Source: Escherichia coli (lineage in GTDB: Bacteria > Pseudomonadota > Gammaproteobacteria > Enterobacterales > Enterobacteriaceae). From it: a DNA stretch of 64,000 nt. Location of the stretch: the NCBI RefSeq assembly GCF_024700885.2, contig NZ_CP117016.1, one strand, 5' to 3'. Below, piece by piece: positions 61,552 to 61,702 of this stretch. Position numbers and translations under genes: made by a program. The notes below the pieces were generated by a model. That model had not been told where the DNA came from. It was given only the letters and a program-made list of their open reading frames with translations, and made no database searches. How positions within the stretch are numbered: position 1 is the first letter of the stretch; every line of letters begins with the position of its first letter.

Positions 61552-61568
61552 CTTAAGGTTCACTTAAT
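61552..61568 (+). promoter_or_regulatory. Candidate BasR (PmrA) box: direct repeat CTTAAG-N5-CTTAAT upstream of pmrR
   Basis: Read directly about 45 bp upstream of the pmrR ATG; matches the YTTAAK-N5-YTTAAK PmrA consensus. Confidence 0.5.
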
Positions 61569-61612
61569 CTCTGACGCGCATACTCTCCTCCAGGTTAACG
61601 GAGGAGAGTGCA

Positions 61613-61702
61613 ATGAAAAACCGTGTTTATGAAAGTTTAACTACCGTGTTCAGCGTGCTGGTGGTCAGCAGCTTTCTTTATATCTGGTTTGCCACGTACT
61701 GA
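61613..61702 (+). CDS. pmrR: 29-aa membrane peptide PmrR (YjdO)
   Basis: ATG..TGA ORF MKNRVYESLTTVFSVLVVSSFLYIWFATY with GGAGGAG Shine-Dalgarno about 7 nt upstream; 3' end overlaps the basS 3' end on the opposite strand. Confidence 0.75.
   Translation: MKNRVYESLTTVFSVLVVSSFLYIWFATY

Follow-up and report, generated by a model that had tools for sequence, protein, structure and literature searches.

The pmrR locus of Escherichia coli: a known small-protein gene of the BasR/PmrA regulon and a conserved hairpin with the potential to mask its ribosome-binding site

In Escherichia coli, a reading frame of only 29 codons lies between proP and basS (pmrB), runs convergently into the end of the basS kinase gene and is preceded by a direct repeat suggestive of the regulator BasR (PmrA). 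This arrangement raises the questions of what the small gene is, how its expression is set and whether its transcription bears on the very kinase that it overlaps. The original prediction, made for a stretch of E. coli DNA of 64,000 nucleotides (hereafter the window), held that such genes are often missed by annotation and that transcription of pmrR might feed back on basS as antisense RNA. Here we set that prediction against database annotation, published work and the corresponding loci of related bacteria. The gene, its BasR box, the function of its peptide and its overlap with basS have all been annotated or published before, and the finding as first noted adds nothing to the record. Three smaller points, on a hairpin, on an Rfam entry and on homologues in the Klebsiella clade, could be of use for work on polymyxin resistance. 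The only possibly new detail at this locus is a conserved hairpin able to hide the pmrR ribosome-binding site. Coordinates are collected in Table 1.

The 29-codon frame and its strong Shine-Dalgarno (SD) sequence are both read directly in the DNA, and the frame is identified as pmrR, as already published, by RefSeq annotation and by a match to the NCBIfam family NF033224. The translated peptide, MKNRVYESLTTVFSVLVVSSFLYIWFATY, matches this PmrR equivalog model over its whole length (residues 1-29 of 29) with 74.2 bits against a cut-off of 30, and precomputed matches to the Pfam family PF28106 'PmrR' exist for the orthologues of Salmonella and Intestinirhabdus. RefSeq names the frame pmrR, 'LpxT activity modulator PmrR', with proP and pmrB as its flanks, and its counterpart in strain MG1655 is b4703 (4332116-4332205). 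Between the window and MG1655 there is a single mismatch across 61400-61800 (61542, T versus C), and it falls within the REP-like hairpin upstream of the gene. By megablast, the segment 61400-61900 is present in 5,412 of 5,426 complete E. coli genomes, while a tblastn search of the PmrR peptide against the plasmid collection gave no match. The expectation that annotation would have overlooked the gene finds no support here, as pmrR is annotated in about 5,400 RefSeq E. coli genomes, MG1655 included, and has its own NCBIfam and Pfam families. We hold with high confidence that the locus is the known pmrR, a member of the BasR/PmrA regulon with a published mechanism.

Table 1. Features of the pmrR region, PmrR-like frames of related genera, and the spacing between pmrR and pmrB in the genomes compared.
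Feature	Locus or taxa	Positions	Strand	Remarks
REP-like hairpin	window	61509-61547	.	between proP stop and PmrA box; fold -17.7 kcal/mol
Rfam RF02052 STnc630 match	window	61544-61709	+	181.8 bits against gathering score 55; model positions 1-166 of 166
PmrA/BasR box CTTAAG-GTTCA-CTTAAT (CTTAAGGTTCACTTAAT)	window	61552-61568	+	roughly -40 to -24, counted from the predicted start
-10-like hexamer CATACT (predicted)	window	61579-61584	+	exactly 10 nt after the box
Hairpin	window	61582-61609	.	anti-SD arm ACTCTCCTCC 61582-61591, 8-nt loop, SD arm GGAGGAGAGT 61600-61609
pmrR transcription start (predicted)	window	61592, or 61591	+	near-invariant A, 8 nt past the -10 hexamer, preceded by C
Shine-Dalgarno GGAGGAG	window	61600-61606	+	GGAGG begins 13 nt before the pmrR ATG
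pmrR CDS	window	61613-61702	+	opens with ATG at 61613 and closes with a TGA whose last base is 61702; 29 aa; from the ORF list
basS/pmrB CDS	window	61678-62778	-	last 25 nt (61678-61702) overlap pmrR
C-rich, G-poor stretch of pmrR-sense RNA in basS	window	61783-61942	+	C/G 2.2 to 3.75 in 80-nt windows
PmrR-like ORF	L031	2418-2510	-	
PmrR-like ORF	L032	2577-2669	-	
PmrR-like ORF	L033	2589-2681	-	
PmrR-like ORF	L034	2558-2650	-	
PmrR-like ORF	L035	2581-2673	-	
PmrR-like ORF	L036	2578-2670	-	
PmrR-like ORF	L037	2587-2676	-	
PmrR-like ORF	L038	2587-2679	-	
pmrR-pmrB spacing	Intestinirhabdus			44-nt gap
pmrR-pmrB overlap	Trabulsiella, Pseudescherichia, Enterobacter, Kosakonia			0 nt
pmrR-pmrB overlap	some C. 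amalonaticus, Raoultella			4 nt
pmrR-pmrB overlap	Salmonella, most Citrobacter			7 nt
pmrR-pmrB overlap	Yokenella			11 nt
pmrR-pmrB overlap	K. pneumoniae			22 nt
pmrR-pmrB overlap	E. coli, E. albertii, E. whittamii			25 nt
pmrR-pmrB overlap	E. fergusonii			66 nt

For comparison, relatives were reached through PmrB, and the 3' end of pmrB with its downstream DNA was taken from 23 Escherichia and Citrobacter species; from further loci of Salmonella, Intestinirhabdus, E. fergusonii and a Kosakonia-like contig; and from a third set comprising Klebsiella, Raoultella, Yokenella, Trabulsiella, Pseudescherichia, Enterobacter and Kosakonia. A small ORF follows pmrB in every genome of these three enterobacterial sets. 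In Escherichia and Citrobacter it is unbroken and 29 codons long at every locus (23 of 23), and its variable alignment columns number 15, 5 and 24 at first, second and third codon positions. Because third positions are the most variable and the frame is never broken, pmrR evolves as a coding sequence. Throughout the third set, the frame following pmrB encodes 29-30 residues beginning 'MQK/MQQ...' and has the same layout of box, -10 and hairpin as E. coli pmrR. The identity of these peptides to E. coli PmrR is low, at 24-50%; Phe21 and Trp25 never change. All of them fall under the NCBIfam cut-off (best 27.6 versus 30); that of K. pneumoniae has 30 residues, MQKINFREYLAVATALVIIVAFFHQWVLTF. At four of the loci (L032, L034, L036 and L038) the site carries no called gene. 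In the Klebsiella/Enterobacter clade (L032-L038), moreover, the neighbour of the eptA-pmrAB-pmrR block is uvrB, reading towards pmrR, where the window has proP (59966-61501), so pmrR travels with the operon and not with proP. As colistin resistance in Klebsiella runs via PmrAB, an unannotated and divergent PmrR-like ORF in this clade is of some relevance, and we offer these homologues, together with the hairpin geometry described below, as modest leads.

The convergent 25-nt overlap between pmrR and basS, which the original prediction made the basis of a feedback route, is confirmed and had likewise been published: a '90-bp ORF transcribed opposite to pmrB with a 25-bp overlap' was noted earlier (PMC8004244). 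Judged from the aligned loci, however, the coding overlap is evolutionarily labile, ranging from a gap to 66 nt (Table 1), and the value of 25 nt is confined to some Escherichia. The pmrB stop codon of Citrobacter and Salmonella, TAA or TAG, faces pmrR codons 28-29 and reads TAC or TAT in Escherichia, a change that is synonymous at the third position of pmrR Thr28. With this stop converted, BasS of the Escherichia type gains six C-terminal residues, YVANQI (E. fergusonii apart). In E. fergusonii, PmrB is called at 380 aa (L030 2001-3143) with a different C-terminal tail, ...KKSVSHKPDIEKAADHQHAKHSR, and overlaps 66 nt of an unbroken but uncalled pmrR (L030 3078-3167, minus strand); its tail may reflect a frameshift or an assembly issue. 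The start of basS also varies by annotation, the MG1655 CDS being shorter (ending at L026 3273; L026 3265-3273), while PGAP and the longest ORF in the window agree on 366 aa from a TTG at 62778 (62770-62778). What is kept in every genus examined, even where uvrB replaces proP, is the tight convergent arrangement of pmrR and pmrB.

The direct repeat was correctly taken for a BasR/PmrA box, on the strength of its conserved position and of published genetics. The pattern YTTAAK-N5-YTTAAK has a single match in the 64-kb window, the pmrR box; about 0.16 matches are expected by chance and 14 of 100 shuffled windows contain at least one, so the box alone is statistically not significant. It is credible because its position is conserved across loci and because genetics on it have been published. 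A PmrA box occupies the same site upstream of the small ORF in 36 of 38 fetched loci, the two exceptions being Pseudescherichia, whose box is one base off, and an unrelated Bacteroidales match. Downstream of it, the spacing is rigid: box, 10 nt and then a hexamer nAnnCT recur in 28 of 28 distinct sequences, with A2 and T6 of the hexamer invariant, an arrangement seen in MG1655 at the eptA promoter as well (box, 10 nt, GAGCAT). Between box and stem we saw no -10-like element besides CATACT. From the geometry shared with the eptA promoter, pmrR transcription is predicted to start at about 61591-61592, at the 3' end of the 5' arm of the hairpin; our literature search turned up neither a mapped pmrR start site nor a BasR-binding dataset. 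In the mechanism that we favour, phosphorylated BasR binds the direct repeat, which substitutes for a -35 element, and activates a promoter with a predicted -10 of CATACT and a predicted start near 61592.

The PmrR of Salmonella enterica and its LpxT-inhibiting role were reportedly described by Kato et al. in 2012 (Mol Cell 47:897), and both are taken up in PMC8004244 and PMC8129183. On the same scheme, the pmrR mRNA of E. coli yields an inner-membrane peptide of 29 residues with a single helix; its target, which it binds and inhibits, is LpxT, the lipid A phosphotransferase. Inhibition of LpxT leaves position 1 of lipid A free for phosphoethanolamine from EptA, and this modification renders the surface charge less negative, raising polymyxin resistance and lowering deoxycholate resistance; in Salmonella it also cuts Fe3+ binding and damps PmrB signalling. 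The parts of this mechanism shown in the literature are the requirement for the box, the translation of the frame, the membrane location of its product and the LpxT-dependent phenotypes; for E. coli, inhibition of LpxT by PmrR is likewise on record. E. coli pmrR, its PmrA box and its overlap with pmrB have been drawn explicitly, and deletion of the PmrA box only, in a PmrA-constitutive strain, abolishes PmrR function: polymyxin resistance is lost and deoxycholate resistance regained, the polymyxin effect being reversed by lpxT deletion and complemented by ectopic pmrR (PMC8129183). Initiation of PmrR translation under low Mg2+ has been detected by Ribo-RET, the His-tagged peptide is found in the membrane fraction, and complementation of the growth phenotype of an E. 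coli pmrR deletion needs the start codon (PMC11429745). That growth phenotype is an additional, LpxT-independent one; deletion and overexpression both impair growth, from which a need for tightly balanced PmrR levels has been argued, and a reporter carrying the region upstream of E. coli pmrR showed no significant induction by low Mg2+ (PMC11429745). The absence of any BasR-dependent transcript or peptide from this ORF is already contradicted by these published data.

The feature that these reports leave us to discuss is the hairpin over the SD sequence. Its stem is a perfect 10 bp covering GGAGGAG and folds at about -20 kcal/mol with a z score of about -4.3 on either strand. No other ORF leader in the window folds at -15 or below (0 of 91; mean -5.3, sd 3.5), against -19.4 for pmrR. 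Among the 23 distinct Escherichia and Citrobacter sequences, variation is free in the loop and the flanks but almost absent from the two arms; all stem cells (100%) are paired, and the arms change from C to U only. In the distant genera, aligned by anchoring on the -10 hexamer, the sequence of the stem is altered and its pairing kept. Stem position 6, for example, is C-G in 11 lineages, A-U in three, G-C in two and G-U in one, and positions 7, 10 and 12 also switch Watson-Crick type. As read from these alignments, at least 12 genera have kept the hairpin, with compensatory changes. In each of the 28 distinct sequences the first bases of its 5' arm lie within the -10 hexamer, and the arm reaches as far as the predicted start. 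For a leader taken from that predicted +1, the folding energy is small, 0 to -5.5 kcal/mol. The hairpin is weakest in Yokenella (-7.9) and next weakest in K. pneumoniae (-10.5 kcal/mol).

Our preferred reading of this geometry, tentative and in our estimation somewhat short of an even chance, is that an anti-SD arm has been built into the pmrR core promoter (the -10 and the discriminator), such that only BasR-initiated transcripts would be translatable and read-through would remain silent, and that this design may have been kept by compensatory evolution across the Enterobacteriaceae. An mRNA initiated by BasR would lack the anti-SD arm and present an open leader, whereas RNA reading in from proP, or from uvrB in other genera, would carry the arm and have its SD sequestered. 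All that separates proP from pmrR is the REP-like hairpin, which is not followed by a T-run and was not called as an intrinsic terminator. Several points weigh against this reading, nonetheless. The exclusion of the 5' arm from pmrR mRNA is deduced from promoter geometry alone, and the reporter that showed no significant response to low Mg2+ (PMC11429745) speaks against it. Moreover, the Rfam model STnc630 starts upstream of the box; were that 5' end genuine, the transcript would contain the hairpin. Finally, the stem is nearly as stable in RNA of the basS sense (mean -18.6 kcal/mol, against -19.3 in the pmrR sense), and removal of its 5' arm lowered pmrB mRNA from a plasmid (Xu et al., PMC8004244), which points to a role in the basS 3' UTR. 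Side by side with these arguments stands an observation from K. pneumoniae, where a strong terminator-like hairpin, AAAAAAGGCCGCGTTGCGGCCTTCTT, abuts the PmrA box (L032, about 2730-2760, minus strand) and the SD hairpin is one of the two weakest in the set; this single case fits the hairpin mattering most where upstream termination is poor.

Foremost among the alternatives, and a possible though rather unlikely account in our view, is that the hairpin belongs mainly to the eptA-basRS mRNA, as an end-forming or 3'-protecting stem-loop some 70 nt past the basS stop codon, its overlap with the pmrR SD being incidental. RNA of the basS sense would indeed carry the hairpin 5' arm too, the stem is about equally stable in that sense, and it persists in genera with another downstream neighbour. 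The most direct evidence comes from constructs with graded lengths of DNA downstream of pmrB, whose boundaries we mapped to the window (+86 = 61592, +103 = 61575, +126 = 61552). The +86 plasmid construct, which lacks the 5' arm, conferred no colistin resistance, and its pmrB mRNA was lower by about 315-fold, whereas +103, with the hairpin whole, and +126 restored resistance partly and fully, the colistin MICs for +126, +103 and +86 being 16, 4 and 0.5 ug/mL (PMC8004244). These same boundaries coincide with the start of the PmrA box (+126), with a site shortly before the -10 and hairpin (+103) and with the predicted pmrR +1 (+86); the longer constructs therefore bring back the pmrR -10 and the PmrA box as well, which leaves the comparison confounded. 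The graded MICs track a stepwise rebuilding of the pmrR promoter and hairpin. In addition, mRNA half-life was equal for +86 and +126 (PMC8004244), and no U-run follows the stem in the basS sense, nor was a terminator called there. A generic 3' stabiliser would have no need always to cover the SD and always to start inside the -10 hexamer. One-sided arm changes are mostly G.U-compatible in the pmrR sense (17 G.U pairs versus 5 A.C mismatches, which are not independent events); the strand preference leans slightly to the pmrR sense, too weakly to be relied upon. The predicted role in an anti-SD promoter arm and that of a basS 3' hairpin are not exclusive, and one stem may fill both. A conserved hairpin over the SD offers a simple new reading of the puzzling results on the 'pmrB 3'-downstream region' (Xu et al., PMC8004244).

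The feedback route raised by the original prediction concerns the overlapping transcripts themselves: BasR-driven pmrR transcription would enter the 3' end of basS antisense and lower BasS, either by transcriptional interference or because RNase III cuts the paired RNAs, making an RNA-level negative feedback on the kinase. We judge this unlikely. The plus strand 3' of pmrR, scanned as far as 64000, gave no intrinsic terminator, nor do the relatives share anything terminator-like after the gene; pmrR-basS is, moreover, among the 165 convergent excludons of MG1655 RNA-seq, present in at least 50% of samples (ExcludonFinder, PMC12288877). Read-in to basS is plausible because of this missing terminator and the excludon listing, and the tight convergent packing kept in all genera examined, despite the change of neighbour from proP to uvrB, is in its favour. 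However, the coding overlap itself is not conserved, and the P1 promoter of eptA-basRS is induced together with pmrR by the same regulator, unlike mutually exclusive excludons. Deletion of the pmrR box in a PmrA-constitutive strain left arnT induction unchanged, at about 50-fold, albeit in a background insensitive to BasS level (PMC8129183), and pmrB mRNA was higher, not lower, with the pmrR promoter region present (Xu et al., PMC8004244). The feedback on PmrB that the literature does describe acts through the peptide and not through antisense RNA: with LpxT inhibited, LPS is less negative, Fe3+ binding falls and PmrB activation drops (PMC8004244, summarising Kato 2012). The literature reports no functional effect of pmrR antisense RNA on basS; the comparison of genomes weakens any role for the overlap, and we regard such an effect as doubtful. 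Two candidate elements in this region were set aside, a terminator-like match at 61656-61670 inside the pmrR ORF (one found versus 0.9 expected in shuffles, hence chance or a by-product of coding) and a CCGG...CCGGTTTT motif after the pmrR stop, which is absent as a conserved feature in Citrobacter. Some 80-240 nt past the pmrR stop, the pmrR-sense RNA enters the C-rich, G-poor stretch listed in Table 1, speculatively a candidate Rho loading region that would limit antisense read-in.

It is also conceivable, if quite improbable, that the true pmrR start lies upstream of 61582 and that the hairpin, inside the mRNA, brakes or switches the translation of PmrR. The Rfam match to STnc630 has this hairpin in its consensus structure, and a regulated leader would suit a peptide whose level is said to need tight balance (PMC11429745). 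Yet the only -10-like element ahead of the stem is CATACT, whose fixed 10-nt spacing from the box matches the eptA promoter; an SD locked in a stem of about -20 kcal/mol would allow hardly any translation, while Ribo-RET sees initiation (PMC11429745); and the Rfam model takes in the PmrA box at its 5' end, which suggests imprecise boundaries. That the locus is mainly a non-coding regulatory RNA with an incidental ORF, as its 181.8-bit match to a curated Rfam sRNA family might imply, is largely refuted and highly improbable, given the protein-coding substitution pattern, the retention of ORF length, Phe21 and Trp25 even at 24-50% identity, and a deletion phenotype in E. coli that is complemented only with the start codon (PMC11429745).

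Several known systems help to place the locus. The nearest is the PmrR of Salmonella enterica, an orthologue of 29 aa and 72% identity with the same PmrA box and hairpin, which likewise lies convergent after pmrB (locus L027) and inhibits LpxT; its coding overlap with pmrB, however, is 7 nt versus 25 nt in E. coli. MgrB, which acts on PhoQ, resembles PmrR in being a tiny inner-membrane peptide with a single helix, induced by the very two-component system on which it feeds back, but MgrB binds its kinase directly, whereas PmrR hits an LPS-modifying enzyme and reaches the kinase only via surface charge and Fe3+. As in the convergent excludons collected by ExcludonFinder (PMC12288877), pmrR and basS are convergent genes with transcripts overlapping at their 3' ends; classic excludons show reciprocal expression, and activation of both units by BasR (PMC8129183) speaks against reciprocity here. 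STnc630 (RF02052) and pmrR are the same sequence, matched over the full model. Rfam types the family as an enterobacterial sRNA gene, a name that we did not meet in the literature searched, whereas the evidence shows a small-protein mRNA, so that the entry is really pmrR mRNA plus promoter DNA. For the hairpin itself, the closest likeness lies in the transposase genes of IS10 and IS50, where fold-back inhibition was reportedly described by Davis, Simons and Kleckner in 1985 and by Schulz and Reznikoff in 1991. In such an arrangement, only transcripts from outside would form the inhibitory hairpin. At pmrR, too, an inverted repeat spans the ribosome-binding site, and the promoter of the gene itself is predicted to start transcription in the 5' arm or beyond it; IS10 and IS50 are mobile elements, however, while pmrR is a chromosomal member of a regulon, and its likeness to them is drawn from promoter geometry and covariation alone.
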